64,000 bases of DNA from a virus (Duplodnaviria > Heunggongvirae > Uroviricota > Caudoviricetes), in the IMG/VR virus record IMGVR_UViG_3300018475_001475, one strand, 5' to 3'. The notes below the pieces were generated by a model. The model saw only the letters and a list, made by a program, of their open reading frames with translations, did not search any database and was not told the DNA's origin. Position numbers and translations under genes: made by a program. Positions 7,977 to 58,830 of the stretch are shown piece by piece. Each line of letters begins with the position of its first letter. Position 1 is the first letter of the stretch.

Positions 7977-7996
7977 AAAAAAAATTAAAATACCTC

Positions 7997-8024: not shown

Positions 8025-8075
8025 ACACTCACAACAAGACAAACAATACAAAATTAATTAAGGAGATGCAACAAA

Positions 8076-8588
8076 ATGAAAACGCTAATTGTAGTAGACA
8101 TGCAAAATGATTTTATTGATGCCGCACTTGGCACACCTGAGGCGCAGGCAATAGTACCTAACGTTAAAAAGAAGATTGCAGAATATGACGCTCGTGAAGA
8201 CGCAATTGTTTTTACACGAGACACCCATTTTGAAGATTATCTTGAAACGAATGAAGGCAAGAACCTTCCTGTTAAGCATTGTATTATGGGAACTCATGGT
8301 TGGCAGATTGCAGATGACCTAGAAGTACCTTGTGCTAGATATCTAAATAAGCCTACTTTTGGTTGGCTTGGTTGGAAGTCATTTGATTTTGAAGACGATG
8401 ATGAAATTGAACTAGTTGGTCTTTGTACTGATATCTGCGTGGTGTCTAATGCACTAATTCTAAAGGCAATGTTCCCTGAAGTTAAGATTACAGTGGACGC
8501 AAGTTGCTGTGCAGGCGTTACTCCTGAAAGTCATAAGGCGGCACTGCAGACTATGAAGATGTGCCAGATTAATGTTATTGGAGAGTAA
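8076..8588 (+). CDS. pncA: nicotinamidase/isochorismatase-family cysteine hydrolase (PncA-like)
   Basis: VVDMQNDF N-terminal motif, conserved Lys, catalytic-Cys motif GLCTDICV. Confidence 0.7.
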   Translation: MKTLIVVDMQNDFIDAALGTPEAQAIVPNVKKKIAEYDAREDAIVFTRDTHFEDYLETNEGKNLPVKHCIMGTHGWQIADDLEVPCARYLNKPTFGWLGWKSFDFEDDDEIELVGLCTDICVVSNALILKAMFPEVKITVDASCCAGVTPESHKAALQTMKMCQINVIGE

Positions 8589-8591
8589 ATT

Positions 8592-9398
8592 ATGATTAAG
8601 TTAGATGGTAAAATAGTGCACCAAGAGCATTTTCCAGACAATTCGCTGAGAATTGAACCAATCAATGACAATAGTTTCGATCTATCTTTTATGGGAATGA
8701 CATCAATTCCTAAAAGAATTACTTGGCACTATGAAAGCGATGCTGAATTGTTCACTGTAATTTGTCTAAGAAAGCATTTTGCAAATAAGGAAATGATTTT
8801 GGAAATGCCTTATTGTCCGCACGCTCGCATGGATCGAGTAAAGAACAACAATGAATTCTTTACACTAAAGCATTTTGCAGACGTCATTAATAGTCTTGAC
8901 TTCTCTGAGGTAAAAATTTATGATCCTCACAGCAATGTATGTACTGCGCTAATTAATAATGTAAAAGTAATACCTACATATAATGAGGTTCAAAAAGCTC
9001 TTAAGACAATTGGCTCAACCAATTTAGTTGCATTTTATCCTGATGAAGGGGCCATGAAGCGTGGCACTAGCTATTTGACTGGAGCATATGCGTTTGGTAT
9101 TAAAAATCGTGATTGGCAGACCGGTAAGATTTTAGGACTAGAGCTAATAAATAAGGAAGTTGTAAATGCGAGAGATGTTTTGATTATTGATGATATCTGT
9201 TCTCGTGGAGGTACATTCCTACATTCTGCTAAGGCACTCAAAGAAGCCGGTGCCAGAAAAATTTACCTGTACGTAACTCACTGCGAAAATACAATCCTGG
9301 ATGGTGAGCTACTTACCAGCGGCCTAATTGAAAAGGTATACACAACAAATAGTATTTTTACCAAAGGACATGAAATGATTGAGGTATTCGAACTATGA
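8592..9398 (+). CDS. prs: ribose-phosphate pyrophosphokinase (PRPP synthetase)-like
   Basis: DPHS motif and PRPP-binding loop VLIIDDICSRGGT. Confidence 0.75.
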   Translation: MIKLDGKIVHQEHFPDNSLRIEPINDNSFDLSFMGMTSIPKRITWHYESDAELFTVICLRKHFANKEMILEMPYCPHARMDRVKNNNEFFTLKHFADVINSLDFSEVKIYDPHSNVCTALINNVKVIPTYNEVQKALKTIGSTNLVAFYPDEGAMKRGTSYLTGAYAFGIKNRDWQTGKILGLELINKEVVNARDVLIIDDICSRGGTFLHSAKALKEAGARKIYLYVTHCENTILDGELLTSGLIEKVYTTNSIFTKGHEMIEVFEL

Positions 9399-10879
9399 CA
9401 ATTAATATTATGATGATGCTTTTTTCGGATACATATAAGCACACTCATCCTCGTATGTATCCTCGTAAAGAACCATTTAAAATGAAGAAGCTAGTTTCTT
9501 ATTTAACAGCACGTAAGAATATGTCCCCTGCATTTCCTACAATGGTATTTGTTGGTATGCAGCCATTTCTAATGAATTATCTTATTGATGGTTTCAACAA
9601 TCAATTCTTTGATCGGCCTTTGTGTGATGTAGAAGCAGAATATAAGCATTACATGGACATCCAGGTTGGTGTTGCTAATGTTGAGTGGGATGAAATTGCA
9701 GCACTACACGAACTTGGCTATTTGCCTCTTGAGATTCGTGCTTTACCTGAGGGCTCTGTGGTAAACATGGGTATTCCTGTGGTTGAAATGACTAATACTC
9801 ATCCCGATTTCGCATGGGTTGTTCAGTGGGTTGAATGTATTTTGCAGGCTGAACTGTGGGCTCCCTGTGCATACGCAACTATCGGCAAGGCGTATCATGA
9901 GCTAGCTGATAAGTACTATAAGGATACCACAGATGGCGCTGACCCCTTCATGGCCATGGCAGACTTCGGTATGCGTGGCATGTCTTGTATCGAGGATTCT
10001 ATTCGAGCATCTGCATCGTGGCTGCTAAGTTTCAACAAAACTTCCACTATTCCCGCTCTGCCGTATATTGATAAATATTATCATGCTGATTGTGCAAAAA
10101 ATGGTATTGGACGTGGCGCTGTCTCTACGGAACATTCTGTCATGGGTGCCAACTTCGCTATCGATGGCGATGAGATCACTTTCGTCAAGAGACTACTAAC
10201 CGAACTCTATCCTAATACATCTTTCTCTATGGTATCCGATACATACGACTACTGGAATATGGTCAACAATATTATTCCTGCTTGTAAGGATGAAATCATG
10301 GCACATAATGGTAAACTGTTAATTAGACCCGACTCTGGTGATATGCTCACTATTTCTATTCGTACCATTGAGAAGCTGTGGGAAGTATTTGGAGGCAGTA
10401 TTAATGCTAAAGGCTATAAGGAACTTGATCCTCATATTGGCCTGATTTATGGTGACGGTTGTACATTGAACCGTGTAGCTGATATTTATCGAACTCTTAA
10501 GGAACGTGGCTTTGCAGCGAATAATGTCGTGTTTGGCGTTGGAGCCTTCTGTTTCCATGCCATGTTTGATGTTGGCGGCAAAATGACCGTTATTACACGT
10601 GATACTTTTGGTATGGCGATGAAGGCTACATACGGTGAATTTGGTGACAAGAAGTTGTTTATCTATAAGGATCCAAAGACCGACGAAGGTAATCTAAAGA
10701 AAAGTCATAAGGGATGTTGTATGGTTAGAATGGACAACAAAAACGGTAGATATTTGTGTATGGACAAATTCGAAGGTTGGGTTCCTGATCATATGACAGC
10801 CCTGGAGACGGTCTTTAAGGATGGTAAGATGATTAAGAGCTATGACTTTATGGACATTCGGAGGAGAATGTATGGTTAA
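9395..10879 (+). CDS. nadV: nicotinamide phosphoribosyltransferase (NadV/NAMPT family)
   Basis: Colinear matches to NAMPT blocks: IRPDSG, KGYK, GDG, VFGVGA, KDPKTDEGNLKKSHKG, VFKDGKMIKSYDFMDIRRR. Confidence 0.85.
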   Translation: MTINIMMMLFSDTYKHTHPRMYPRKEPFKMKKLVSYLTARKNMSPAFPTMVFVGMQPFLMNYLIDGFNNQFFDRPLCDVEAEYKHYMDIQVGVANVEWDEIAALHELGYLPLEIRALPEGSVVNMGIPVVEMTNTHPDFAWVVQWVECILQAELWAPCAYATIGKAYHELADKYYKDTTDGADPFMAMADFGMRGMSCIEDSIRASASWLLSFNKTSTIPALPYIDKYYHADCAKNGIGRGAVSTEHSVMGANFAIDGDEITFVKRLLTELYPNTSFSMVSDTYDYWNMVNNIIPACKDEIMAHNGKLLIRPDSGDMLTISIRTIEKLWEVFGGSINAKGYKELDPHIGLIYGDGCTLNRVADIYRTLKERGFAANNVVFGVGAFCFHAMFDVGGKMTVITRDTFGMAMKATYGEFGDKKLFIYKDPKTDEGNLKKSHKGCCMVRMDNKNGRYLCMDKFEGWVPDHMTALETVFKDGKMIKSYDFMDIRRRMYG

Positions 10880-15090: not shown

Positions 15091-17046
15091 GTGAATAAAA
15101 TTGACAGAATTAAAGAACTTGTAGAACTATTAAATCATTACAGAAATGAGTATTATAATAATTCTAGGAGTGAGATCTCAGACTTTGAATACGACAAGCT
15201 ATTTGATGAGTTAACATCGCTAGAATATGAAACAGGATTTATTATGGCTGTGTCGCCTACACAGACAGTTGGCTACGAGGTTAAGTCAGAGTTAAAAAAA
15301 GTAAAGCATAATCACCCCATGCTGTCACTAGACAAAACTAAAAGCGTAGACGATGTAATTAAATTTTTAAATGGTAAAGACGGCGTTATTATGGCAAAAG
15401 CAGATGGCTTAACATGCTCGCTTAGATATGTTAATGGTCATTTAATTTCTGCAGAGACCAGAGGTAATGGCGAAGTTGGCGAAGACATTTTGCACTGTGC
15501 CAAAACTATTAAAAACCTTCCGATAGAAATCAATTGTCTAGATGAAGTTATTGTTGATGGCGAAGTAATTATTACATATGATGATTTTGAAAAAATCAAT
15601 GAGGCGTTACCAGAGGGTCAAAAGTATAAGCATCCTAGAAATCTAGCGTCTGGATCTATCAGACAGCTTGACAGCAGTATTGCCGCACAGCGCAGCATGC
15701 AGTTTATCGCGTGGAAATTAGTTAAAGGCGGTATATATGATTCGTTTTGTTTGAATATTTTTCATATGTATTATCTTGGCTTTGATGTCATTGACTATGC
15801 GCCTATATCACATCGGATTAGACCAAAAGACATTAACATCTATATTTCTTGCATTAAAGATCATGCAAAGAACGCGGGAATCCCAATCGATGGATGTGTG
15901 TTTGGCTATGATGATATAGCTTATGGTGAATCTCTTGGAGCAACCGGGCACCACCTGCGGAGTCAGCTCGCTTTCAAATTTTATGACGAACTGTATCCAA
16001 CTAAATTACAATATATTGACTGGACTGTTGGCAAGTCTTCCCAGTTAACTCCAACTGCTGTATTTGAGACAGTAGAAATTGATGGAACTGATGTGTCAAA
16101 GGCATCGCTGCATAATATTAGTATTATTAAAAATCTTGGACTTACAAATGGATGTACTGTGAATGTGTTCAAAGCAAATCAGATTATTCCACAAATTGAT
16201 TCCTGTGAAAATGACGGTAATGGGGACATTGAAATTCCTACAACATGTCCTATTTGCGGTGGTTTGACGGCCATTAAAAAAGATAACGAGTCAGAAGTGT
16301 TAGTCTGCACAAATTCTGAATGCGCTGGAAAAAAGCTTGCACAATTTACCCACTTCGTTTCCAAGAAGGGCATGGATATTAAAAACCTGTCTGAAGCAAC
16401 GCTAGAAGTACTAATCTCGCATGGTTTTATACGAAAATTCGATGATATTTATTATCTTTCCAACCACTATGGTGACCTTGTTCATCTTGACGGGTTTGGC
16501 AAAAAATCTATCGATAATCTACTAAAATCCATAGATGATTCAAAAAACGTTAAGCTTGAGAATTTCATTGCCGCATTGGGTATTACTAATATTGGATTAT
16601 CTGCGGCAAAGACTATTTCTAAGGCATGCGATGGTGACTGGAATAAATTATGGGACATGTGGAATTATGAATATGATTTTACCAAGTTGGATGACTTTGG
16701 AGAAGTAATGGCAAATAATTTTGTAAAATATTTTGACACATATATTAACGACATTTCCGCTCTTGCCGACAGAATGAATTTTATTGTTGAAGAAAATAAG
16801 CCTGCTAGTAACAGCGTATTCACAGGAAAAACAATTTGCGTTACCGGAAAGCTGAATCATTTCACCAGAGATTCTATCAACGAAAAGATTACTTCCCTTG
16901 GCGCAAAAACAGCAGGCTCTGTCTCCAAGAAAACTGATTACTTGGTAACAAATGAGACTAGTGGATCTTCTAAATATAAGAAGGCTGTTGAGCTTAATAT
17001 CCCAATTATTACAGAGGACGAGTTTATTAAAATGTTGGAGGATTAA
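15091..17046 (+). CDS. ligA: NAD+-dependent DNA ligase
   Basis: KxDG adenylation motif KADGLT, four-Cys zinc finger (CPICGG...CTNSEC), C-terminal BRCT (FTGKTICVTGKL); GTG start after GGAG. Confidence 0.9.
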   Translation: MNKIDRIKELVELLNHYRNEYYNNSRSEISDFEYDKLFDELTSLEYETGFIMAVSPTQTVGYEVKSELKKVKHNHPMLSLDKTKSVDDVIKFLNGKDGVIMAKADGLTCSLRYVNGHLISAETRGNGEVGEDILHCAKTIKNLPIEINCLDEVIVDGEVIITYDDFEKINEALPEGQKYKHPRNLASGSIRQLDSSIAAQRSMQFIAWKLVKGGIYDSFCLNIFHMYYLGFDVIDYAPISHRIRPKDINIYISCIKDHAKNAGIPIDGCVFGYDDIAYGESLGATGHHLRSQLAFKFYDELYPTKLQYIDWTVGKSSQLTPTAVFETVEIDGTDVSKASLHNISIIKNLGLTNGCTVNVFKANQIIPQIDSCENDGNGDIEIPTTCPICGGLTAIKKDNESEVLVCTNSECAGKKLAQFTHFVSKKGMDIKNLSEATLEVLISHGFIRKFDDIYYLSNHYGDLVHLDGFGKKSIDNLLKSIDDSKNVKLENFIAALGITNIGLSAAKTISKACDGDWNKLWDMWNYEYDFTKLDDFGEVMANNFVKYFDTYINDISALADRMNFIVEENKPASNSVFTGKTICVTGKLNHFTRDSINEKITSLGAKTAGSVSKKTDYLVTNETSGSSKYKKAVELNIPIITEDEFIKMLED

Positions 17047-23202: not shown

Positions 23203-23364
23203 ATGAAAGATGTAATTATAAGATATTTACCATACGGAACAACTCAAGAAGAATTAAAACAAATAAGGCATGAATTTAAGGATGAAAACACAACTCTTAT
23301 TTTGATAATTTCAGGTCAAGATAAACTATTGGATAACTTGCAATCTCTTGTGAATATTGACTAA
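23203..23364 (+). CDS. small hypothetical protein (53 aa) upstream of integrase
   Basis: GGAG RBS; MKDVIIRYLPYGTTQEELKQIRHEF... Confidence 0.35.
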   Translation: MKDVIIRYLPYGTTQEELKQIRHEFKDENTTLILIISGQDKLLDNLQSLVNID

Positions 23365-23419
23365 TTTTGCATTTCGAGTTACAATAAGGTATATAGAAAG
23401 TAACAATGAGGTGAATGCT

Positions 23420-25405
23420 ATGAACAAGAAAAAAGTAGAAATATTAATACAACAAGAACTGATCGAGGCTGTTGGTTATTTGCGTTTATCTAAAGATGAT
23501 GGAGATGACGAAAGTACATCAATAACAAATCAAAGGGCTATTATAGCAGATTGGGCGGCACAAAATGGATTTATAATTACTGACTGGTATGTTGACGACG
23601 GATATAGCGGATACAAAATGAACAGACCAGATTTTAATAGACTTAAAAATGATTTGAATGCAGGTAAGGTTAAAGTTGTTATAGCAAAACACTTATCACG
23701 TATCGGTAGAAGAGGATCTGAAGTAAATTTATTTTTAGAAAACATGCAAGAAGATGGTAATAGAGTAATTACCATAAGTGATGGATATGATACATTTGAT
23801 GAACGTACACATGATACTGTTGGAATTAACACTTGGGTAAATGAAAAATATGTTAGAGATACAAGTAAGAATGTAAGAGCGGCAATAGAAAGGATGCAAA
23901 AAGAAGGAAGATTTATTTGTCAAGTACCGTATGGATATGAATTAGATCCGTTTATTAAAGGAAAATATTATATAGATAAAACCTGCGCGATTCATGTACA
24001 AGAAATATTTGATATGTATTTAAACGGTTACGGAAGTAAAGCAATAGCAAAAATATTAACAGAACGTAAAATACCTACTTATTGGCAAAATGTTAAGACA
24101 AGGATGGAAAGACGTGGACAAATTTATCGTGGAAGAGATTTTGAAGGAATATGGACACCAAATACGATACTGAAAATACTAAGAAACGATTTTTATATCG
24201 GTGTATTAACACTTGGTAAAAGTAAAAGAAGAACAATCAATGGGAAAAAAGTTATGCAAAAAGATGAAGACTTAATAAGATTTGAAGATGCTCATGAACC
24301 ATTAATCGACAAACAAACATTTAAACTTGCGCAAGAAATTATGGCGGAAAGAACACATTCTAATTACAGAAGTTCAGAAAAGGGACCAACCATCTTCTCT
24401 GGAAAATTATACTGTGCTGACTGTGGAACCAGATTGACTCCAAGCACAAGTGCTAAAACACAAAGATATGTATGTCGTAAATATCACCTAGCAGGAACCG
24501 ATTATTGCACTAGTCACTCAACAAACGACAGAAACCTAACGGCTGCATTAATATACTTCCTTGAACATTGTAGGGATAATTTAGCAGAAGCGATATCTGA
24601 CTTAAAAATAGAATCCAGAAATAAAATGAAAGATTACCAAAAAGATAGTTTTGCAGTTTTACAAAAAGATAAAGAAAGAATAGAAAAAGAAATTGAAGTT
24701 CTGATAGAACAAAAAATGCGTGAAACTATTGCTAATCCAACAATGAAAGAATTCATAGATAAAACTTATGCTAATATGATTAATACAAAATATTCAGAAT
24801 TACAATCAGCAACTGCAAGAATTGATGAAATAGAAGAAGAGACATCTCAAAATGTAGATATGAAAAAAGAACTGACATCTGTATTAGATATATTTGACGA
24901 TATTATTTCAAGCAAAACATTAAGCCGTCGTCAAATTGAAACCATAGTTGAAAAAATTCTAGTTCATGAAGACGGTGGCATGGATATATTCCTTAAAGGA
25001 GATTTGCATGAATTGTGTACGAATTATATCCAATTTAAAAGTTCAAGCAAAGAAGCTATTGTTGAAAATATGATTAAATATATGGAAATGCACGCAGACG
25101 AACCAATCATTAAAAAGAAATGTGAAAAATATGTTAGAGCGCAAGGAGTAAGATTCGACACAAATATCTTTTCTAAACTATATCACAATATGATAGATTG
25201 TGGATACCTTGAGCCTATATCTCCCGTTAAGGGAAGTCGCAAAGGGAGCCGTGTAGTAGATGTTGACAAATTAAAACAAGCACTGAAAGATGACACCGTT
25301 ATGGCATACTCCCCAAGGTGTGAGAGAAGAAGTGTCACTATTCAATTCTTACATAAAGTATATAAATGGTATATTGGCACAAAGCCAAAATATAAAAAGT
25401 ATTAA
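23420..25405 (+). CDS. int: large serine recombinase (phage integrase)
   Basis: N-terminal resolvase domain with catalytic Ser in AVGYLRLSKDDGDDESTSITNQR; recombinase/zinc-ribbon region (CADCGTRL...YVCRKYH) and long coiled coil; GAGGTG RBS before ATG 23420. Confidence 0.85.
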   Translation: MNKKKVEILIQQELIEAVGYLRLSKDDGDDESTSITNQRAIIADWAAQNGFIITDWYVDDGYSGYKMNRPDFNRLKNDLNAGKVKVVIAKHLSRIGRRGSEVNLFLENMQEDGNRVITISDGYDTFDERTHDTVGINTWVNEKYVRDTSKNVRAAIERMQKEGRFICQVPYGYELDPFIKGKYYIDKTCAIHVQEIFDMYLNGYGSKAIAKILTERKIPTYWQNVKTRMERRGQIYRGRDFEGIWTPNTILKILRNDFYIGVLTLGKSKRRTINGKKVMQKDEDLIRFEDAHEPLIDKQTFKLAQEIMAERTHSNYRSSEKGPTIFSGKLYCADCGTRLTPSTSAKTQRYVCRKYHLAGTDYCTSHSTNDRNLTAALIYFLEHCRDNLAEAISDLKIESRNKMKDYQKDSFAVLQKDKERIEKEIEVLIEQKMRETIANPTMKEFIDKTYANMINTKYSELQSATARIDEIEEETSQNVDMKKELTSVLDIFDDIISSKTLSRRQIETIVEKILVHEDGGMDIFLKGDLHELCTNYIQFKSSSKEAIVENMIKYMEMHADEPIIKKKCEKYVRAQGVRFDTNIFSKLYHNMIDCGYLEPISPVKGSRKGSRVVDVDKLKQALKDDTVMAYSPRCERRSVTIQFLHKVYKWYIGTKPKYKKY

Positions 25406-38891: not shown

Positions 38892-39800
38892 TTACGGATT
38901 CCAAATATTTAAGACTGTTTTTCTTACCTCTTCTTCTGATAAAGTATAAGGCAAGCGTATTAATTGAATGTTGTTTTTTATACAATATTGAGTTTTAATA
39001 TCATCATTCACTTTTCTTCTGTTAAACTCTTTTTCCCCGCCAAAATATTCAATTGGTTGAAAATGTTGAATACCATCATATTCAATACAAGTATTATAAG
39101 TTGGTAAATAAAAATCAAATGGTAATGGCAATATATTTCTACAATCACCAAATCTATGATTATAAATATATGTTATATTATTGTCGTTTAAAATATTTTT
39201 AATTAAATTTTCTCCAACAGAATCATGCTCGCCACATCCACACGAATGCGTAAATCCTTGAAGTAAATTGCCCATATATACAATAGAAGTGTTTCCGCAA
39301 TCACAAGAACATTTACAATATGTTTGTTGATTTTTATATCCATAAAGCATTTCATCTACAACTAATTTACCGAATTTCATACCAAGCAAATCAGTTCTTC
39401 TGCCGTCCCAACCCTTTTCATAGGAATTGCATCCACAAGAAGTTGTATGTCCAGAAATTAAATTTGATAAAGAACAAATGTGTTCATTATTACAATCACA
39501 ATCGCATAAACAATAAGTTCTTTCATTTTTGTAGTTGTACAACATTTTCTTAACAACAAGATTGCCAAATCGATCTCCAACTATGTCACTTCTATAATGT
39601 TCTTGTGATAATTCTTTTCTTAAGCATCCACATGATTGAGATTCTCCTATTAATAACGAGTTTTTATAAACCATTTTTATTGTTTGTTTTTCACATAAAC
39701 ATTGACATTTACAATATGTTTTTCCATTTTTATATTTTGGAATAACATCTAGCACAATCCACCGGCCAAACTGTCTGCCAACCATTTCTTCATTAGTCAT
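38892..39800 (-). CDS. free-standing homing-endonuclease-like protein
   Basis: Three about 50-aa repeats FG(R/N/K)hhV...NG/ER/QQTYC.C.C.C...SCGC; C-terminal FDFYLP...IEYDGIQHF resembles Vsr/DUF559-type PD-(D/E)xK nucleases; preceded by GGAGG and the early leader motif. Confidence 0.6.
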   Translation of the reverse strand: MTNEEMVGRQFGRWIVLDVIPKYKNGKTYCKCQCLCEKQTIKMVYKNSLLIGESQSCGCLRKELSQEHYRSDIVGDRFGNLVVKKMLYNYKNERTYCLCDCDCNNEHICSLSNLISGHTTSCGCNSYEKGWDGRRTDLLGMKFGKLVVDEMLYGYKNQQTYCKCSCDCGNTSIVYMGNLLQGFTHSCGCGEHDSVGENLIKNILNDNNITYIYNHRFGDCRNILPLPFDFYLPTYNTCIEYDGIQHFQPIEYFGGEKEFNRRKVNDDIKTQYCIKNNIQLIRLPYTLSEEEVRKTVLNIWNP

Positions 39801-49936: not shown

Positions 49937-50710
49937 TTATAAGAGTTCATTTACTTTGTTTTGCACCTCGGCATAATTATATCCAGCAGATTCTAGTCTC
50001 TTCTTCCTATCATCGCCATTGCCCCATTTGCCTTGAATCACTTCTCTCGCAATAGTATCGATGGATTGTTTAGACAACAACTCGTTCACCTTATCTTGAA
50101 CGATTGCATAATCATATCCTGCTGCTTTTAATTTTGCCTTTCTAATTGCGCCATTCCCCCATTTGCCACCAATTACCTCTTTGGCAATATCAGTGATGGA
50201 TTTTTTGGCGCTCAATCTTTTATTAACTTGCTCCGCTATCCATGGGAACTTACTTTGTAAATACGGGCCGGGGCAGCATGTATTCGAAAACATGTTGTGC
50301 CTAGTTAAATTTCCACTTGTGTCATATGTATAATTAAGTTTTTCAATGCCATTTCTCTTACAAATATCAACACATAACTCGACCAACTTCTCTAAAGCCT
50401 TGTCACTTACATGCCAGTCTGGTGCACAACCATCGTTCGCAACCTCAATTGTTATAGATTGATTATCATTATAAAAACTTGAGCTTGTCCACGCCCTATT
50501 CTTTTCTTCGACATATAGGCCAATCAGTCCCTCAGAATCGATCCCATAATTGGCACTTGCCTCACATGCAGGATCTTGAAACACATTCCCCAAAGTTTGG
50601 ACAGATAAATTACCAGCCGCATGATGAATAGTAATTTTCTTAATTTTTGCTGTTCTTGGATTATAATTTGGTGATAATTTCACAAAATTTACTAATAGAC
50701 TATTTGACAT
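49937..50710 (-). CDS. endolysin: N-acetylmuramoyl-L-alanine amidase (Amidase_2/PGRP) + two CW_7 (Cpl-7) repeats
   Basis: KITIHHAAG...CPGP amidase_2 zinc motifs; duplicated IA(K/R)EVI(G/Q)GKWGNG...AGY.YA.VQ.KVNELL. Confidence 0.85.
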   Translation of the reverse strand: MSNSLLVNFVKLSPNYNPRTAKIKKITIHHAAGNLSVQTLGNVFQDPACEASANYGIDSEGLIGLYVEEKNRAWTSSSFYNDNQSITIEVANDGCAPDWHVSDKALEKLVELCVDICKRNGIEKLNYTYDTSGNLTRHNMFSNTCCPGPYLQSKFPWIAEQVNKRLSAKKSITDIAKEVIGGKWGNGAIRKAKLKAAGYDYAIVQDKVNELLSKQSIDTIAREVIQGKWGNGDDRKKRLESAGYNYAEVQNKVNELL

Positions 50711-50728
50711 ATATGTTCCCCCTTTAAT

Positions 50729-51484
50729 TTAAACGACTAATTCTAATAATTTCTTCCAGGTTCTGCCTTCCTCTTCTGCAATGCCAGTAGGAGTACAGCC
50801 GTTCTTATTCTGGAAGTCGGTAAGTGCTTTTTTGAACATTGCGCCAGCTACTCCATCAGCAGTTCCGATTTCATCATAACCGAGCGCCAGTAGTCTTTTT
50901 TGAACTGCCTTAATAACCTTATGTTTCCTATTAATATTATTTGAAATCGTAACTGTTTTATTAAGCGTTGCAACGTCAGCTTTACCTGTGACTGGTGCCC
51001 CGCAGGCAGTTTGTACATCTCGTACAAATTGTTCTAAGGTATATTGTATATCAACAGATGCACCAAAAGTAGTTACTTTAACTTGTGCATGACCACGCCA
51101 GAAAGACTTAACTGTACGCGTATCGATATGTACGAAATAACCATCTTTATCTGTGTTATACAGGCCGATCCCAAGAATTCCTATACTCTCACAATACTTT
51201 GCGACCTCTTCAGGCATATGTCCCTTGACAACAATATCAGCTGCTTCTCCACCTTTGGTGTGTCTAGATTGAGGTGCGCCGCCAATTTTTTTATTATGTT
51301 TCGCACAGCGATATCCAGAATTAATTGTAATGGGCGCATCAAAATGCTCTCTAATCCGTTGTACGTATTCCACTAACTTCGGATCAATAATAGTTTCGGA
51401 GCAACAACCAACACCATGGCAATCAAATTCGGTTGAGCTAAAATTCTTAGATAATTTAGTCGGCTTTCCTTTCGTATAAACCAT
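50729..51484 (-). CDS. endolysin: peptidase M15 + C-terminal PG_binding_1 domain
   Basis: SGYRCAKHNKKIGGAPQSRHTKGGEAADI zinc-peptidase motif; C-terminal VIKAVQKRLLALGYDEIGTADGVAGAMFKKALTDFQ. Confidence 0.75.
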   Translation of the reverse strand: MVYTKGKPTKLSKNFSSTEFDCHGVGCCSETIIDPKLVEYVQRIREHFDAPITINSGYRCAKHNKKIGGAPQSRHTKGGEAADIVVKGHMPEEVAKYCESIGILGIGLYNTDKDGYFVHIDTRTVKSFWRGHAQVKVTTFGASVDIQYTLEQFVRDVQTACGAPVTGKADVATLNKTVTISNNINRKHKVIKAVQKRLLALGYDEIGTADGVAGAMFKKALTDFQNKNGCTPTGIAEEEGRTWKKLLELVV

Positions 51485-51511: not shown

Positions 51512-52030
51512 TTATAAAAAACTATCTTCATCTAGATGCTTATCGTACATGTGTTTAATATGTTTAATGGTAGCCTTTGCTACATTATTCATATAATGTG
51601 GATGATCATCACAATAATGTTCATACTCAGAACAATCTATAAGCACAGAGTCCCAATGTTCTTTGCTATAATTATCACCATGTAAAATATTATCGCCAAA
51701 CTCTAAGATACGAGCTCTGCGATTCGTAGCCTCTCTCTCTTTGGCCTCTTCTCTTATATCAGAAACATCTTTCTTAATTCCTTGTACTTCTTTATTTACA
51801 TTGCCCATTTCAGTTTTTAAGGTCCCAATCTTGTTGTCCATATTTGTTTCTAAATTACTAATTTTGTTCATAACTTCGCCATTAAAAGCGGCTCCAATTT
51901 TTTTAGCAAGCCAACTCCATGGGTTGAACTTAATTGGAGTGATTTCAATCAGCAACGACAACACAACTAATACTACAAGCCAAAAACTGCTATGGTCTTT
52001 AAATAGACACATTATTTCATGAAGCGTCAA
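51512..52030 (-). CDS. membrane-anchored coiled-coil protein; start ambiguous (TTG 52030 / GTG 52039 / ATG 52012)
   Basis: N-terminal TM WLVVLVVLSLLIEI then heptad-rich region. Confidence 0.45.
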   Translation of the reverse strand: MTLHEIMCLFKDHSSFWLVVLVVLSLLIEITPIKFNPWSWLAKKIGAAFNGEVMNKISNLETNMDNKIGTLKTEMGNVNKEVQGIKKDVSDIREEAKEREATNRRARILEFGDNILHGDNYSKEHWDSVLIDCSEYEHYCDDHPHYMNNVAKATIKHIKHMYDKHLDEDSFL

Positions 52031-52087
52031 CAGATTCACCTCCTAAAATGTAATATATCCTCTTGTAAGGTAGAGGCAAACCATAAA

Positions 52088-52735
52088 TTATTTTCCAAAA
52101 TTGCGCTTACGAGTGCTATACTCGTGTAAAACTTGACCTAAAATAAACTCATCAAGATCCGGGAATAAATTATCTACAAACATTAACTCTGCATATGCAG
52201 ACTGCCAAAGAAGAAAGTTAGACAATCTCATATCTCCACCAGTACGCAGAATCATATCTGGTTCCGGTGCATATCTAGTAAGATGCGCAGTAATTCCTTC
52301 CTCTGTTCTAGCGCCAGCCTCAATAGCTCTTATAATTTCATCCCGTCCGCCGTAGTCTAGACACAAAACTAGCGTTAACGCATTTCCATTTTCCGTAGCG
52401 TTTTCAAATTTAATCATGGCGTTAATCAGACTTTCATCCAATCTGTCACGCCGACCAGAAAATTGTACTTTGATACCTTGATTTACATACCAATCTAAGC
52501 GCTCATCAAAATACCAACGGCCAAGGCCAATCAACATATCAACTTCCGTTTTTGCGCGCCCCCAGTTCTCAGTAGAGAAGCAATACACGGTAAGATACTC
52601 AATGTTGTTCTCTATGGCCCAGTCGCAACAGTTCTCGACGGTAATGAGCCCTTGTAAATATCCTGACTTAATCGGTAGGCTGTTATGATGCGCCCACCTA
52701 CGATTACCATCTGCTATAATTGCTAAATGTTTCAT
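52088..52735 (-). CDS. uppS: undecaprenyl pyrophosphate synthase (cis-prenyltransferase)
   Basis: HLAIIADGNRRWA, TVYCFSTENW, RTGGDMRLSNFLLWQSAYAE colinear with E. coli UppS as I recall it; ATG overlaps upstream stop (ATGA). Confidence 0.85.
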   Translation of the reverse strand: MKHLAIIADGNRRWAHHNSLPIKSGYLQGLITVENCCDWAIENNIEYLTVYCFSTENWGRAKTEVDMLIGLGRWYFDERLDWYVNQGIKVQFSGRRDRLDESLINAMIKFENATENGNALTLVLCLDYGGRDEIIRAIEAGARTEEGITAHLTRYAPEPDMILRTGGDMRLSNFLLWQSAYAELMFVDNLFPDLDEFILGQVLHEYSTRKRNFGK

Positions 52736-53898
52736 TGCATCATCTCTTTTTCGTATAATTCTATGTATGGCAATTTACGTGTCTTCCAAGAGAAGTCTTG
52801 CTCCATACACAACTTGCGCTTTGCGGATAACTCTTCCTCATCGTAGTACAGCATAGCTGCTTTTGAAATAGCATCAGCCATGTTATTCTTATACACCACG
52901 ATGGCGTTGTCGTCGTTAAAATTATCGGCCAAACCACCATTTAAGGTCACAATCGGAATAGCGCCATAATGGCTCGCTGTCATAGGCATAAGACCACACG
53001 ACTCCATAAGGCTCGGTTGCAAATAAAAGTCTGCGCCAGCAGTCATAGGAGCTGCCTGTACCGGAGATGCTCTTCGATTCATAAATATGACTCCGTCAGA
53101 GCGCTTATAAGAACGTAGTTTCTGCTCATACTGTGGTGCACCCTTGCCCACAACAAGAAGAATACCTCCGGTTTCCTTAATGATAGGTATGGCCCTAATG
53201 ATAGCTTCAATATTCTTCTCTCTAATTAGCCTACACATTGTAAGACATATATAAGGATCTCCTTGGATTCCATATGTTTGCTTTAATCTTTCCTTGCACA
53301 CTTGCTTGCCAGCCATGTCGTTTGGTGAGAATTTTGCAGGCAATAACACACCTCTTTCAGGTGCCAAAACAGTATCAAGAATACCATCAGGAACGCCATG
53401 AAAATCCACTTTTGTCAAAACTTCGGATAGCGCATCACCATTTTCCAGAACAACCTTTGCGAAATTCTTTGAATTCGTAGTCACACTATCATATTCTAAC
53501 AAAAGATTTTCTTTGCCGCGAAGCACTTTAGGATTGTCAAAACTGTAGATTACTTTTGATGGTCTAGTTGTAAGCATACTTAAAATCTCTGGCTCTGCCA
53601 TATTATGAAGAATATCTGGGCCAATAAAGTTTATCACATTAGCAACAAGTGTACGCCATGATGATCTAGCAATCAAGTAGTACGTGACATTAGAAAACTT
53701 ACAACTCCTAACACCATCAGATATTTGTGTAAATGTAGAGGCGGTTTTAGCTATAACGCCATCACCATCAGGGCATACAACAAAAACATTGTAATCAAGA
53801 CTTAATGCATTTGCTAGACTGTCAGTAACTTCGGCCACGCCACACTTGACTATGCCTGAGAAAACGCTCTCGTTTGATACTATTACTAGCTTTTTCAC
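52732..53898 (-). CDS. GlgA-like (GT5/GT4-type) glycosyltransferase
   Basis: N-terminal VSNESVFSGIVKCGVAEVTDSLANAL and C-terminal GADFYLQPSLMESCGLMPMTASHYGAIPIV resemble glycogen-synthase blocks; GTG start overlaps upstream stop (GTGA). Confidence 0.6.
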   Translation of the reverse strand: MKKLVIVSNESVFSGIVKCGVAEVTDSLANALSLDYNVFVVCPDGDGVIAKTASTFTQISDGVRSCKFSNVTYYLIARSSWRTLVANVINFIGPDILHNMAEPEILSMLTTRPSKVIYSFDNPKVLRGKENLLLEYDSVTTNSKNFAKVVLENGDALSEVLTKVDFHGVPDGILDTVLAPERGVLLPAKFSPNDMAGKQVCKERLKQTYGIQGDPYICLTMCRLIREKNIEAIIRAIPIIKETGGILLVVGKGAPQYEQKLRSYKRSDGVIFMNRRASPVQAAPMTAGADFYLQPSLMESCGLMPMTASHYGAIPIVTLNGGLADNFNDDNAIVVYKNNMADAISKAAMLYYDEEELSAKRKLCMEQDFSWKTRKLPYIELYEKEMMQ

Positions 53899-55583
53899 AC
53901 CATGGCACCTCCCAACCCTATAAGTTGAAGAATCTTTTCTTCTTCTGCGGATAACATCATATCAACTGCTTGCTCAGCGGTAGCATTCTCCAAAAGTTCT
54001 TTATTGCAGTATGCTGCGCCGGATAACAGCCCGTTTGCGAAATATGTCCCATCTTCCGTCTCGATGCCGAACATTTCAGCAGGCTCGTTAATACATTCCT
54101 TAGAAACTAAAGCCACATAATCACCATTTTGATTCACGGCATGATCACCAACATTCCAGTATTTAAGCCTCTGCCAAAAACCTTGTTCGACATTATAGAA
54201 TCTATGGTCGTGAGTCTCGTCGATTACTGCACCATCTTCGAATCGATACAAAACATGATGTTGATTGAATTTTCCTCTAGCAATCTTATTTACTCTTACC
54301 GCTTTGCCAGACTTGGATACAACCATATCTCCAACAGCAATGTTTTGCATTTGTTTAACCGTCCCACCAGCCATTGTTATGTTGGTATCGCCGGAAAGGC
54401 ATACTTCTGCGTCTGAATAATTACGATATATATCATCAACCGTTAGAGACTCGTCGGTATTAGTATAGCACCATACAAATACACGCTGCAGCCCTGCTTC
54501 GTCCACCTTATAGTCTAATGAATAAATGAGATCAGATGGCGTGGTGTTGTTTTGAACATTCGTGATGAGATCATGCTCATCAGGTTCATCTTCTCCGTCA
54601 TAAAAACTCACTCGAACTCTCGCAACGTCTGACGGACATACTCCAGTTACAGATAAAGTAGTGCCACCTTCAGTGAAGTCATAATCACATCCAGAGCCGT
54701 AACAACTGTCACATATTGTAACTGTATCTATATATCCTTTTCCATTACAAGACTCGCACGTATCCCATATGCGTCCCGTACCATCACAAGTTGGACAAGT
54801 CGCGCTCATATCAACACCAAGGCCGCCACACACCTCACATACCTCAGCATAGCCCTTGCCAAAACAACTAGGACAAGATGTACCTGTGTTTTCTCCATTA
54901 CACTCTGGGCAAACACCTGTGCCGCCTTTTCCATTACATGCAGAACATGCTACGCTGCCAAACAAGCAGTCATCACAGGAGGTGTCACTCTCGCCATCGC
55001 CAAGACATTCGTCGCAGCGAGCCTCATACCAGCCGCCCGTTCCATCGCAAACCGAGCACGCGTGACAAAAATCCTTAGGCTTTGCTTCAGCATAAACAAG
55101 AACGCCAAAATCTTCCGGCACGTCAATCTCAGTAATTTCAATAGTACCGCTCACGTAACCAGTATTGACATGCTCTGCGGATACGCATATCCATAACAAT
55201 ATATCGCCTGCGGGTACTTCAATATTTGTAAACGAAAAATTCCCTTCTTCATCAGACTTGGTACTGGATATAATAGACGATTCTGGCCATCTTTTATACG
55301 CTTCGTCGCTGTCTTCACTGGGCACTCCGATATATACAGTAGAAGATACTGGAGCACACATTCCCGTAACATTACATATCGATGCACCATTAACAAAGAA
55401 CCTGTCGGTTATATAACAAACAACGTCATCGTATACATATACAACTTGACACTCATGTGGGGTTCCATTAGCATCAATACAAACCGACTTAGAATGTGCT
55501 GGCGGTGTCCCGTTGTCTATCATAGGTACAAAACAAACACTCGTAGTGGCACCGTGAACTATAACGTTGTTAGAAGTAATCAT
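53895..55583 (-). CDS. Cys-repeat (CxxCxGxG x about 8) protein with C-terminal Hint / bacterial-intein-like domain
   Basis: Repeats CSACNGKGG, CPECNGENTG, CPSCFGKGY, CEVCGGLG, CPTCDGTGR, CESCNGKGY; Hint blocks CLSGDTNITMAGG, VIDETHDHRFY, GTYFANGLLSGAAYC. Confidence 0.6.
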   Translation of the reverse strand: MITSNNVIVHGATTSVCFVPMIDNGTPPAHSKSVCIDANGTPHECQVVYVYDDVVCYITDRFFVNGASICNVTGMCAPVSSTVYIGVPSEDSDEAYKRWPESSIISSTKSDEEGNFSFTNIEVPAGDILLWICVSAEHVNTGYVSGTIEITEIDVPEDFGVLVYAEAKPKDFCHACSVCDGTGGWYEARCDECLGDGESDTSCDDCLFGSVACSACNGKGGTGVCPECNGENTGTSCPSCFGKGYAEVCEVCGGLGVDMSATCPTCDGTGRIWDTCESCNGKGYIDTVTICDSCYGSGCDYDFTEGGTTLSVTGVCPSDVARVRVSFYDGEDEPDEHDLITNVQNNTTPSDLIYSLDYKVDEAGLQRVFVWCYTNTDESLTVDDIYRNYSDAEVCLSGDTNITMAGGTVKQMQNIAVGDMVVSKSGKAVRVNKIARGKFNQHHVLYRFEDGAVIDETHDHRFYNVEQGFWQRLKYWNVGDHAVNQNGDYVALVSKECINEPAEMFGIETEDGTYFANGLLSGAAYCNKELLENATAEQAVDMMLSAEEEKILQLIGLGGAMV

Positions 55584-57694: not shown

Positions 57695-58207
57695 TTATAT
57701 CACCTCTCCATAACAAATGATTTTTGGGTCGGTCAGCTCCCGCACTCGCTGTGCAACCGCTCCACCCTCGTGTTTTTCAAAAACACCGCTCGGATCAACG
57801 GTGTTCCCCTCGACGGTAATTACCATATCTCGCTCCAAGTAGACAACAATGCCACAGTGGTCAACTCTACCACTGCCGTTGGTGAGGAAAATAAGGTCGC
57901 CTTCTTTGGGCGTATCCGTCAATCTGTCTTTGCGCTTCAAGCGGCGATAAAGCACCCTTGTTCCGGGATGGGGCTTGCCAAGCATCTTCCTTGCCTTCTC
58001 CTTGCTCAAAGCCTCTATAAACACGGCATGGACAAAGGTAGCGCACCAGGGCAGGCCGGAGAAATTACGCCAACGATATGACTTGTTGATCAGATAGGCA
58101 AAGATCGTACAGCCGCCCTTCCCGGAGTTGGCGGTAAATACGCCCAACAAATCGTTGTCAAGGTGTTCCAGGTAGCCGATATATTTCTGCGCTGTCTTTA
58201 CTATCAT
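57695..58207 (-). CDS. CHAP-domain peptidoglycan hydrolase
   Basis: Cys in GLPWCATFV and His in VDHCGIVVY spaced as in CHAP domains; GGGAG RBS before ATG 58207. Confidence 0.6.
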   Translation of the reverse strand: MIVKTAQKYIGYLEHLDNDLLGVFTANSGKGGCTIFAYLINKSYRWRNFSGLPWCATFVHAVFIEALSKEKARKMLGKPHPGTRVLYRRLKRKDRLTDTPKEGDLIFLTNGSGRVDHCGIVVYLERDMVITVEGNTVDPSGVFEKHEGGAVAQRVRELTDPKIICYGEVI

Positions 58208-58212
58208 TGCTA

Positions 58213-58830
58213 TCACTCCCGGAATTTGAACGTCATAGAGATCAGCGTACTGTCATTATTGAAAAGGTCGATCATGCACGCAAAGCTGGTATCACCTGTC
58301 TTAAAGTTTGGCATATTCAGACTGGAATCTTCCAACGCTGTAATCAGCACGTCAAGGAAATCGACAAAGCTACCCCCAGCCATGGCGGTAAAATCTGGAG
58401 CACCAATCTGTGTGCTGCTTCCTCCGATGGGCTTAATGTATGCCGTGCATTTACTTACCACTATTTTGGGGTAGCTACCACTCTCGTAAACCCAACCTGC
58501 GAACCTGTCCCATGAAGGAATAGGATTTTCTGCAAGTTTGGTACGCACTGCGGACAGGGCCTCACTGAGGGTCATGTTGGTGTAGCCTTCAAAGTCCAGC
58601 CGGTCATCGGGAGCAATAAACTCCCAGCCGGTGTAATTATTGGCGAAAATGACTGCGCCACCCTCAGCGGTTTTGCGGAAGTCATAGGTCACGGAATTGT
58701 AAATCATTTTCAGGAGCGTATGGACAGTACCCAGCTTGTCCTTAAAGAACGCTTTTTTTACGGAGTAGATCGGTACATGGTTAAACAGAAAGGTGGTCTT
58801 TCCCTCGCTGTCAAAGTATGTTGTCCCCAT
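58213..58830 (-). CDS. hypothetical protein
   Basis: AAAGGAGG RBS 9 nt upstream; 205 aa. Confidence 0.5.
   Translation of the reverse strand: MGTTYFDSEGKTTFLFNHVPIYSVKKAFFKDKLGTVHTLLKMIYNSVTYDFRKTAEGGAVIFANNYTGWEFIAPDDRLDFEGYTNMTLSEALSAVRTKLAENPIPSWDRFAGWVYESGSYPKIVVSKCTAYIKPIGGSSTQIGAPDFTAMAGGSFVDFLDVLITALEDSSLNMPNFKTGDTSFACMIDLFNNDSTLISMTFKFRE

Follow-up and report, generated by a model that had tools for sequence, protein, structure and literature searches.

Why does a large phage carry a UppS-type cis-prenyltransferase, a GlgA-like glycosyltransferase (GT) and a protein ending in a Hint domain as three overlapping genes? The locus lies within a stretch of 64,000 nucleotides (hereafter the window), which is phage DNA belonging to a ~170-kb contig recovered from many samples, and which represents a large gut or rumen phage. 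The original prediction held that the three genes are translationally coupled, that they reside in the late region of the phage, and that such a unit had not been described. We likewise found no description of a Hint-tail/GT/UppS module in the literature.

Both predicted stop/start overlaps are present on the minus strand (Table 1) and bear out the proposed coupling, and the Shine-Dalgarno sequence of the GT gene, GGGAGGTG, is embedded in the end of the Hint gene, among the last codons of its tail. This cassette is not a chance arrangement, because its open reading frames are long, its profile matches are strong, and proteins identical to those it encodes are found on 14-18 independent contigs. 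Its late-region setting also proved to be as first described: the neighboring genes are phage tail-fibre-like and lysis genes rather than host genes or transposase remnants, and holin and endolysin genes are located just downstream of the module in the window and in two other loci (L015 and L039).

Table 1. Positions of the module genes and their parts within the window.
Feature	Position	Strand	Basis
Gene 1, 562-aa cargo-Hint-tail protein (range includes stop TGA, 53895-53897)	53895..55583	-	ORF, Pfam, family alignment
Cargo, residues 1-394	54402..55583	-	Family alignment consensus
Eight CxxCxGxG units and three CxxC pairs, DnaJ-type zinc-ribbon repeats, residues 173-298	54690..55067	-	Regex, Pfam PF00684, PDB matches
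Hint core, residues 395-526	54006..54401	-	Invariant columns, AF2, Foldseek
Acidic tail, residues 527-562, NKELLENATAEQAVDMMLSAEEEKILQLIGLGGAMV	53898..54005	-	Family conservation, AF2 helices
Gene 2, compact GlgA-like GT-B glycosyltransferase, 388 aa, GTG start	52732..53898	-	Profiles, AF2, Foldseek
Gene 3, UppS-type cis-prenyltransferase, 215 aa	52088..52735	-	Profiles, PDB alignment
GTGA overlap, Hint-tail stop/GT start	53895..53898	-	Read from sequence
ATGA overlap, GT stop/UppS start	52732..52735	-	Read from sequence

Profile searches and structure comparisons uphold the identities originally proposed for all three genes. The gene 3 protein matches Prenyltransf (PF01255; 7e-64, 215.8 bits versus a cut-off of 27) and passes the uppS model TIGR00055 (197 bits versus 109.55), although it falls below the cut-off of every organism-specific PRK equivalog, and it aligns end to end with a solved UPPS structure (PDB 1f75; 2e-44). 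The catalytic Asp and Arg residues to which the prediction had tied this assignment are in place: the window protein has D26 (in DGNxRWA), S71, N74, R77, R194, R200, S202 and E213, none of which varies among the 120 relatives examined. These and the following positions are numbered after an E. coli UppS reference sequence that is consistent with PDB 1jp3 in its length and in the range aligned. The H43 position is Tyr in the window (84 Tyr and 36 His among the 120 family members), and R242, the arginine of the C-terminal RxG, is replaced by Asn in 108/120, flanked by invariant R241 and G244. The phage enzymes form a distinct clade, marked by the fixed substitutions G29R, A69C, A92Y, S99W and R242N and by a 12-aa deletion relative to the bacterial enzyme. 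The bulky A92Y and S99W substitutions fall in the tunnel helix, where they could shift the chain length of the product.

Most database matches to this UppS that are labelled 'phage' are plain bacterial contigs that have been mislabelled. They speak for a cassette made of recently captured host genes, of passengers without function, or of a misassembled bacterial fragment, an explanation that we consider hardly credible. Even the nearest bacterial UppS with a solved structure or an annotation shares only ~35-40% identity with the gene 3 protein; UppS, GT and Hint each have a large phage clade that is under purifying selection and in which the catalytic residues never vary; and the same arrangement recurs on many contigs of 90-250 kb that carry phage capsid, portal and terminase genes. 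These observations effectively refute all three variants of this explanation. The large phages that bear the module have Firmicutes-type hosts, and contigs related to them have been binned with Lachnospiraceae and Oscillospiraceae.

The gene 2 protein matches Glycos_transf_1 (7e-15) and, over model positions 208-476 only (the C-terminal half), the glgA model TIGR02095 (5e-41; 140.8 bits versus a cut-off of 328.45). An AF2 model of the protein (pLDDT 93) most closely matches E. coli GlgA (PDB 2qzs; Foldseek 1e-22, TM 0.85), followed by starch synthases. R223, K228 and E299 correspond to GlgA R300, K305 and E377, and the first two are nearly invariant in the family whereas E299 is entirely so. 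The N-domain is ~90 aa shorter than that of GlgA (388 versus about 477 aa overall). When the consensus of 41 family sequences was compared by eye with the N-terminal motif of GlgA, G20, E23 and D26 were found to be conserved, but the lysine of KTGGL (K15) was variable. As judged by sequence and model, gene 2 encodes a predicted retaining, GT5-like enzyme whose GT-B fold is nearest those of GlgA and starch synthases.

The cargo portion of the gene 1 protein consists of a family-conserved N-terminal region, a zinc-ribbon array, and a second conserved region ahead of the Hint Cys. The array, initially described as about eight repeats, has exactly eight CxxCxGxG units, at residues 176, 190, 213, 237, 249, 263, 276 and 291, and it matches the zinc fingers of DnaJ and Ydj1 in the PDB. 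Pfam searches place DnaJ_CXXCXGXG (PF00684; 1e-7) and Hom_end_hint (1e-5) on this protein just under their gathering scores. Among relatives, the cargo ranges from 250 to 1080 aa, with LRR_5, PKD or Big_3 domains and with 0-12 zinc units. It resembles a structural or fibre protein and stands among tail-fibre-like genes, and none of 34 cargos has a signal peptide or transmembrane segment; the gene 1 protein likewise has neither.

The predicted C-terminal Hint domain is also present. It begins with Cys395 (54399-54401) in CLSGDT, which occupies the invariant nucleophile position, carries a block-B His460 (in ETHDHRFYN) that is invariant across the family alignment, and has YFANGLLSG as the last strand of its core. 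With Pfam Hint models the window protein scores 26.2 against a gathering score of 32.1, and 26 of 34 relatives are matched; PF01079 matches 14 of the 34 family members. The assignment is secured by an AF2 model (pLDDT 91.6) and its Foldseek matches, with probability 1.0, to BIL domains (BIL2 6y75, 9e-11; C. thermocellum 2lwy), mini-inteins, the gp41-1 intein and Hedgehog (1at0, 2e-7). The domain looks catalytically competent.

The distribution of the three genes reveals which of them belong together. The Hint domain plus tail occurs in ~120 representative protein clusters, every time at the extreme C-terminus and behind a variable fibre-like cargo, and a clean score gap separates tail-bearing from tail-less forms. 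A GT family member follows the tail-bearing Hint protein in all 12 phage lineages that were sampled (window/L001-6, L007, L009 type, L011, L013/L028, L014, L016, L017, L027/L038, L039, L040 and L041), regardless of whether loci were chosen via UppS (5/5), via the GT (3/3) or via the Hint profile. The 4-nt overlap between the two genes is kept in eight of nine gene-called loci, and the genes flanking the module differ among phages. Neither a GT nor a UppS gene is adjacent to any of the 10 tail-less Hint relatives examined. UppS follows in 9/11 lineages; it is absent from L027/L038, L039 and L015, although L016, a close relative of L015, has it. Some lineages have an FPP-synthase-like insert (polyprenyl_synt, 1.5e-40), and L007 alone has a GtrB-like insert (4e-71; PDB 5ekp, 2e-42). 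Since the pairing of Hint-tail and GT is universal among the 12 lineages whereas UppS is missing from some, the former two constitute the invariant core of the module, and polyprenyl-phosphate supply is an accessory in which UppS is dispensable. The trio turns up in many uncultured phages that are unrelated to each other, and therefore it probably forms one pathway that links protein self-processing to the synthesis of lipid-linked sugars.

These findings alter the emphasis of the original prediction, which named the genes and their setting correctly but saw UppS and the GT as the main point and the Hint protein as a neighbor. By that account, UppS and the GT would be auxiliary enzymes that remodel the host undecaprenyl phosphate (Und-P) pool or envelope glycans for receptor masking, superinfection exclusion or lysis timing, and the Hint protein would merely be an adjoining structural gene. 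It has precedent in phage Gtr-type glucosylation of surface polymers via Und-P-glucose, which is established, and it agrees with the GtrB-like gene of one lineage and with the position of the module just upstream of lysis genes. However, the perfect adjacency of Hint-tail and GT, their kept overlap and the restriction of the tail to GT-linked proteins would be very surprising for unrelated neighbors, the GT is soluble and acidic, and none of the three proposed roles accounts for a GT tied to the C-terminal tail of a self-processing protein. Moreover, the ORF list and profile searches of the window cassette revealed no flippase, no GT-C or other membrane transferase, and no GT2 or multi-pass membrane gene. 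We consider this account unlikely. Nor is the cassette a Gtr seroconversion cluster, given that it carries no GT2 or multi-pass membrane gene and that a GtrB-like gene occurs in L007 only.

What, then, might couple the GT to the Hint protein? The tail is a conserved, clade-specific element of ~35 aa at the extreme C-terminus, opens with the invariant Asn527, and is predicted by AF2 to form three short helices. It is restricted to GT-linked Hint proteins and tracks perfectly with the GT/UppS genes, and its sequence is unrelated to the SRR of Hedgehog. Both the tail (mean net charge -4.3) and the GT N-domain (-5.7) are acidic, and neither resembles a typical lipid- or membrane-binding element.

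An invariant Asn at the border between Hint core and tail fits C-terminal cleavage of the intein or BIL type better than it fits a Hedgehog-type domain. A canonical intein can be dismissed: the residue after Asn527 is Lys, Gln, Arg, Leu or another rather than a fixed Cys, Ser or Thr, nothing but a 35-aa stretch comes after it, and the cargo ahead of the Hint core varies. In a BIL-type reaction, the Hint core might excise itself via Cys395 and Asn527 and the cargo be joined directly to the tail by aminolysis; the resulting cargo-tail protein would then bind the GT. BIL domains are among the nearest structures, the two residues concerned are both invariant, and A-type BIL domains reportedly can splice even where no Cys, Ser or Thr occupies the +1 position, a finding attributed to Dassa et al. 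in 2004. However, Asn527 is predicted to reside within a helix, five residues past the last strand rather than at the strand end, and the penultimate position holds Cys or Ala in place of His. In addition, no Hint-less cargo-tail protein is seen upstream of the GT in the 12 lineages, and splicing offers no evident benefit to the phage. We therefore judge this route to be very unlikely.

The reading that we favor, at a probability of roughly one in three, would have the GT docked by the tail and the Hint thioester resolved by a glucoside or glycolipid product of this enzyme, by analogy with Hedgehog processing. The case for such cooperation is drawn from the linkage of the genes. Polyprenyl phosphate or polyprenyl-phosphate-glucose would come from UppS together with a phosphatase of the host and a GtrB of either host or phage, and with an NDP-glucose as donor the GT would build or lengthen an alpha-glucoside on the polyprenyl lipid. 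This step would be chemically analogous to that of GlgM acting on glucose-1-phosphate. The tail would then hold the GT beside the Hint active site, much as glycogen synthase is recruited by the C-terminal ~34 residues of glycogenin, a conserved helix-turn-helix called GN34 (PMC9188544). Cys395 would turn the peptide bond that joins it to the cargo into a thioester, and a hydroxyl of the GT product would resolve it, freeing Hint plus tail and leaving the cargo esterified at its C-terminus to a glucan or glycolipid. This exchange has two precedents: BIL2, the top structural match, couples the partner at its N-terminus to external nucleophiles (PMC8616854), and Hedgehog adds a lipid via its Hint domain and a C-terminal recognition region (PMC2362128). 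A fibre-like protein capped in this manner might serve in virion decoration, in membrane tethering during assembly or lysis, or in surface modification.

The main rival to thioester transfer, in our view a real though doubtful possibility, is that the Hint-tail unit is simply a removable C-terminal maturation module. The tail would recruit the GT, which would glycosylate the cargo or act as an assembly partner, and Hint would subsequently hydrolyse itself off; UppS and the accessory enzymes would be a separate supply of lipid carrier. By default, C-terminal Hint and BIL domains act by autoproteolysis, and the auto-cleaving intramolecular chaperones of phage tail fibres and spikes offer a model for such maturation of a fibre-like cargo encoded among tail-fibre-like genes. 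The acidic tail resembles a protein-docking peptide, some lineages do without UppS, and tail-less relatives share the Hint core without any GT. Simple self-cleavage leaves unexplained, however, why UppS, FPPS-like and GtrB-like genes have repeatedly been recruited into the same string of overlapping genes. A GlgA-like enzyme would also be unusual as a protein O-glycosyltransferase, and, given that GT-B enzymes do not take polyprenyl-phosphate-sugars as donors, a connection between the lipid and protein glycosylation is not obvious.

A bolder version of thioester transfer, which we hold only tentatively and consider unlikely, is that phages of gut Firmicutes encode their own Hedgehog- or GPI-like lipidation, in which a polyprenyl-phosphate-linked glucoside resolves the thioester. 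The GlgA-like GT and UppS would build this adduct, with an FPPS or GtrB in some lineages, and the docking tail would stand in for a sterol-recognition region. Several observations, among them the acidity of the tail and the GT N-domain and the invariant Asn527, weigh against the favored reading as well as this version of it. With UppS missing from L027/L038 and L039, the adduct may be something other than the lipid, and we could not find by eye an obvious equivalent of the Hedgehog general base Asp46 in the phage Hint domain. To our knowledge GT5 enzymes extend soluble glucans and not lipid-linked acceptors. Since the cargos have neither signal peptides nor transmembrane segments, a lipidated product would face the cytoplasmic side of the membrane. 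If lipidation does occur, it would be the first Hint-mediated transfer of a lipid or glycolipid outside eukaryotes, and the first adduct pathway to be encoded beside its Hint protein.

The known systems nearest the module each differ from it. Phage Gtr seroconversion clusters are likewise phage-encoded and use polyprenyl-phosphate-glucose, and L007 shares a GtrB homologue with them, but GtrB, the GtrA flippase and GtrC are all missing from the window, and the clusters have no counterpart of the Hint protein and GT-B core. Gene 3 passes the TIGR00055 cut-off and has the full set of core catalytic and IPP-binding residues of bacterial UppS, from which its clade is set apart by an identity of at most about 40%, fixed substitutions and the 12-aa deletion. 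GlgA and starch synthases (GT5) are the nearest folds to the module GT, which retains R300, K305, E377 and the GGLADxx motifs; the phage enzyme is shorter, falls below the TIGR02095 cut-off (141 versus 328 bits), does not conserve the KTGGL lysine and lies in a genomic context unrelated to glycogen metabolism. The glycogenin-glycogen synthase pair similarly combines a helical C-terminal peptide of ~34-35 residues with a glycogen-synthase-like GT-B partner. This likeness is an analogy only, as the module has no GT8 glycogenin domain, the tails are not homologous, and the module GT is GT5-like rather than GT3.

BIL domains (C. thermocellum 2lwy and Tetrahymena BUBL BIL2 6y75) match the module Hint best in both structure and sequence and share with it Cys1, a C-terminal Asn and the lack of a +1 nucleophile, whereas the module Hint is always C-terminal and is followed by its conserved tail alone. 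We know of no coupling of BIL domains to glycosyltransferases or lipid synthesis. Hedgehog/Hog proteins (1at0 and 6tyy, Foldseek ~1e-7) resemble the module in having a variable N-terminal cargo, a C-terminal Hint domain with Cys and block-B His, a conserved C-terminal extension and an involved lipid pathway, the last by genetic association in the phages. The Hedgehog cargo is secreted whereas that of the module is not, and the module has an invariant Asn527 at the Hint border and a tail that is 35 aa long, acidic and without sequence similarity to the SRR. By analogy, the proposed scheme shares the logic of Hedgehog cholesterol transfer and of BIL2-mediated conjugation, in this case within a prokaryotic virus that encodes the putative adduct-making enzymes alongside.

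The cassette predicted in the late region of this phage is real: its three open reading frames, the GTGA and ATGA overlaps of stop and start codons (genes 1/2 and genes 2/3, respectively) and the family profile matches were all recovered. Gene 1 encodes a cargo (residues 1-394), a Hint domain and an acidic tail of ~35 amino acids (the 'Hint-tail' protein), gene 2 a glycosyltransferase (GT) and gene 3 an undecaprenyl-PP synthase (UppS). The Shine-Dalgarno sequence of the GT gene, GGGAGGTG, lies within the final codons of gene 1, and no convincing internal promoter or terminator divides the cassette, where counts of such signals are at shuffle level. From this layout, the three genes are predicted to be co-transcribed and translationally coupled.

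Features of the window and of related uncultured contigs (L numbers) that carry Hint homologues or the module
Sequence	Feature	Coordinates	Strand	Type
window	gene 1, cargo-Hint-tail protein, 562 aa	53895-55583	minus	ORF
window	gene 2, GT, 388 aa, GTG start	52732-53898	minus	ORF
window	gene 3, UppS, 215 aa	52088-52735	minus	ORF
window	175-aa protein directly after UppS	51512-52039	minus
window	two distinct tandem endolysins (M15 peptidase/PG_binding_1; Amidase_2/CW_7) and a CHAP-domain wall hydrolase	49937-51484; 57695-58216	minus
window	three giant ORFs, 1147, 2811 and 2531 aa	25701-47517	minus	ORF
window	HNH/homing endonuclease	38892-39800		ORF
window	large serine recombinase/integrase	23357-25405	plus
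window	NAD+ salvage genes (PRPP synthase, nicotinamide phosphoribosyltransferase) and NAD-dependent DNA ligase	8592-10879; 15091-17046	plus
window	RNA ligase and PNK-like kinase	5669-7976
L027	ORF in UppS place, after GT	9707-10408		ORF
L038	ORF in UppS place, after GT	9231-9902		ORF
L017	255-aa hydrophobic ORF	8497-9264		ORF
L011/L012	module genes with in-frame TAG	6715-10648
L040	module genes with in-frame TAG	2038-6971
L041	module genes with in-frame TAG	1052-4227

The DNA that carries the cassette is phage DNA. Genes for LRR_5/BspA-like, CHAP and tail-fibre-like proteins lie upstream; downstream are a phrog_37604 protein, the M15-peptidase and Amidase_2+CW_7 endolysins, a RuvC-like resolvase and small ORFs of holin size. 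In the opposite half of the window are genes for NAMPT, PRPP synthase, an NAD-dependent ligase, ribonucleotide reductase, RNA ligase and the large serine recombinase. An identical UppS is present on at least 24 contigs of up to ~170 kb with unchanged gene order. With tail-fibre-like and lysis genes as its flanks, rather than host sequence or the remnants of a transposase or recombinase, and with the nearest recombinase, the large serine one, ~27 kb away, an origin as a host fragment or transposon is ruled out, and it is most improbable that these are passenger genes or host DNA.

Several other features of this genome were observed. The large serine recombinase (phrog_95, 4e-99) sits where transcription direction and GC skew switch, and therefore the ~170-kb phage may be temperate. 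The HNH ORF lies between the two largest of the giant ORFs, which have almost no family matches, and the NAD+ salvage pair is near the NAD-dependent DNA ligase. A third wall hydrolase, with a CHAP domain, is found among the tail-fibre-like genes. The 175-aa protein has an N-terminal hydrophobic segment and a sole match, phrog_37604, of unknown function; in L015 the corresponding position, just ahead of the endolysin, is occupied by a DUF2951-like protein that also resembles Listeria phage A118 gp23.

UppS matches Prenyltransf at 7e-64, scores 197 bits with TIGR00055 (cut-off 109.55), and aligns over its full length with solved UPP synthases (1f75, 2e-44). Residues were numbered by what we take to be the E. 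coli UppS reference, whose length and aligned range agree with PDB 1jp3. Across an alignment of 120 relatives, D26, N28, R30, S71, N74, R77, R194, R200, S202 and E213 are invariant, so the catalytic Asp and Arg residues are in place and the original identification of the enzyme as UppS is borne out. It conforms to its family apart from H43, which is Tyr or His in this clade, and R242; the clade also shares a 12-aa deletion and the fixed differences G29R, A69C, A92Y, S99W and R242N (R241 is kept). With this invariant core and these fixed differences, UppS appears to be an active cis-prenyltransferase that belongs to a clade of its own.

Scans of IMG/VR with single proteins yielded no match, and relatives in that database were detected by profile. 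The UppS search revealed a tight family of 215-223 aa on contigs of up to 195 kb. Five contigs chosen by UppS (58-63% identical, with differing flanking genes) were inspected, and all five have the order 427-711-aa protein, GT of ~385 aa, an optional gene, and UppS. At every such locus a Hint-tail HMM matches directly upstream of the GT, even in proteins that lack a Pfam label. Hint-tail and GT also occur together at three of three loci chosen by GT, and the GT is again linked at loci chosen via the most divergent Hint-tail proteins. Overall the pair is found in 12 of 12 lineages; the two genes abut in all except L017, and a 4-nt overlap joins Hint stop and GT start at 8 of 9 gene-called loci. 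Of the 11 lineages with enough sequence, nine have UppS after the GT. It is absent from L027/L038 and L039, and also from L015, whose near relative L016 has it. One widespread lineage has a trans-polyprenyl synthase (PF00348, 1.5e-40) inserted between GT and UppS, and another has an inserted GtrB-type polyprenyl-phosphate hexosyltransferase (phrog_841, 4e-71; PDB 5ekp, 2e-42). Because UppS is sometimes missing and the extra genes vary, the invariant core of the module is Hint-tail plus GT, and the supply of polyprenyl-phosphate(-glucose) is a frequent accessory that has been repeatedly reinforced.

At the loci examined, the tail is confined to proteins linked to a GT. When 1.84 billion representatives were searched exhaustively by profile, ~120 clusters with Hint plus tail were recovered, the region always at the extreme C-terminus of proteins of up to 1250 aa, and a clear score gap separates them from tail-less Hint forms. 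Ten loci with a tail-less homologue (ending 'YFANGLLSGNR…') have no GT or UppS nearby. This perfect, tail-specific linkage contradicts a reading of the cassette in which UppS and GT remodel the host Und-P pool or envelope, as first proposed, and the Hint gene is a bystander. The original interpretation is partly supported: its phage setting and gene identities stand; we consider remodelling with a bystander Hint gene unlikely.

Some lineages show further variation. The ORF in the UppS place of L027 and L038 (223-233 aa) belongs to no Pfam family and has a marginal match (E 1e-3) to a PHROG of unknown function. In L017, a high-GC contig from an Oscillospiraceae bin, the hydrophobic ORF lies between the Hint-tail gene and the GT, overlapping the stop of the former and, by 4 nt, the start of the latter; it could be a membrane component of that lineage's module. 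Tail-less relatives with this Hint core (L018-L026, L036) are found on MAG contigs from Alphaproteobacteria, Bacilli and 'Tenericutes', and some of the proteins (L021, L023) contain additional partial Hint repeats. Late module genes in L011/L012, L040 and L041 are read through in-frame TAG codons; for example, L011 has 10 in the Hint gene, four in the GT and one in UppS, whereas L040 has 30 in its Hint gene, which encodes 1250 aa. The TAG at UppS position 169 falls opposite Met, Tyr, Lys, Arg or Gln in the alignment. By these codons, the contigs are identified as stop-codon-recoded phages.

The cargo of gene 1 contains exactly eight CxxCxGxG units by regular expression, the number originally estimated, plus three extra CxxC pairs; DnaJ_CXXCXGXG and Hom_end_hint match just below Pfam thresholds. 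The Hint assignment was upheld by the predicted model (pLDDT 91.6), which matches Tetrahymena BUBL BIL2, mini-inteins, the C. thermocellum BIL domain and the Hedgehog C-terminal domain. The domain has the features of the Hint superfamily and does not qualify as a canonical intein or Hog domain, and a BFVD fold search returned only Hint-core matches, none with the tail. On the five contigs chosen by UppS, the Hint proteins upstream of the GT share homology solely in their final ~170 residues, which carry an invariant CLSGDT start, ETHxHRFYN, YANGLLSG, an invariant Asn and the tail consensus LLxxATAEQAVDMxLSxxExxLLxLxGLEGxLP. Cargos of relatives have a loosely conserved N-terminal region, a second conserved region ahead of the Cys, and 0-12 zinc-ribbon units or LRR_5, PKD or Big_3 domains; none has a signal peptide or TM segment.

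The GT matches Glycos_transf_1 at 7e-15, and its C-terminal half matches glgA (TIGR02095) at 5e-41, a strong but sub-threshold score. The folds closest to its model (pLDDT 93) are starch synthases and the GlgA proteins of E. coli and Agrobacterium (E 1e-22, TM 0.85); the GT4 enzymes BshA, MshA, PimB' and GlgM rank lower. Equivalents of GlgA R300, K305 and E377 are retained, in agreement with the predicted GlgA-like identity. The acceptor-side N-domain is ~90 aa shorter than that of GlgA, and the family lacks a conserved KTGGL lysine. The protein thus falls outside the GlgA equivalog but still appears GT5-like.

All three proteins appear to carry residues expected of active enzymes, and we infer that they work together. 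The most economical scheme, which uses every part and to which we assign a probability of roughly one in three, is conjugation of the cargo to the GT product. UppS, with or without FPPS and GtrB, would make polyprenyl-P or polyprenyl-P-Glc, to which the GlgA-like GT would add alpha-glucose. The tail would dock the GT next to the Hint active site, and a hydroxyl of the GT product would resolve the Cys395 thioester, moving the cargo onto a glucan or glycolipid. Against this scheme, UppS is missing in some lineages, the cargo is cytoplasmic, and Asn527, at the Hint/tail border, is invariant, a trait shared with inteins and A-type BILs. Furthermore, neither the tail nor the GT N-domain, both of them acidic, has a lipid-binding appearance; because of this acidity, membrane binding by tail or GT is unsupported. 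An almost equally probable rival is simple maturation by autoproteolysis, in which the tail would recruit the GT for another purpose, and BIL-type splicing that joins cargo to tail seems quite unlikely.

C-terminal Hint domains release or transfer the upstream protein, and to our knowledge the acceptor is known only for Hedgehog (cholesterol) and a few BIL cases. Here a candidate acceptor pathway, a glycogen-synthase-like transferase with polyprenyl-phosphate synthesis, adjoins the Hint gene in at least 12 phage lineages and ~120 protein clusters. With three small genes, a long-standing question becomes directly testable, namely which acceptors receive the cargo of bacterial and viral Hint domains. 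An abundant unannotated module is revealed in large gut and rumen phages, stop-codon-recoded ones included, and carrier-lipid synthesis (UppS, FPPS-like) can be added to the functions that phages encode. If the conjugation model is true, the module would be a self-contained enzymatic route to C-terminal glycolipid tagging of proteins, and adduct transfer, if true, would be categorically new for viruses and prokaryotes.

The module is real, conserved and undescribed, as originally suspected. Our literature searches returned no paper joining phage, Hint and undecaprenyl, none on phage-encoded UppS, and none combining BIL, phage and glycosyltransferase; phage Hint domains in the literature are terminase inteins. 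The proteins have no public names except an automated 'glycogen synthase [Bacteriophage sp.]' on one relative. The phages deposited in GenBank hold no close relative of the region by blastn and none of Hint-tail by tblastn, and their best match to the GT is 29% identical. UppS matches among deposited phages are mostly bacterial contigs wrongly labelled as phage. Streptomyces phage Gilgamesh was rejected as a carrier, its UppS-like gene sitting amid membrane-protein and ParA genes. No PHROGs family covers UppS, the Hint protein or the adjoining small genes, and PADLOC defence-system profiles gave no match except to an intein-like N-terminus.

Among known systems, the Gtr seroconversion cluster is set apart by the absence of GtrA and GtrC from the phage module and by the restriction of GtrB to one lineage. 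Identification as a Hedgehog-type protein, an intein or a glycogen operon was likewise rejected. By analogy, the proposed docking of the GT resembles glycogenin, in which a C-terminal helix-turn-helix of ~34 residues recruits glycogen synthase (PMC9188544). Hedgehog, which couples Hint to a sterol- or adduct-recognition region (PMC2362128), would follow the same logic, as would BIL2, the top structural match of the phage Hint domain, which attaches the partner upstream of it to external nucleophiles (PMC8616854). Every component is a member of a known superfamily, and the whole, in which C-terminal Hint autoprocessing appears to be hard-wired to a glucosyltransferase and carrier-lipid synthesis, matches no described system.
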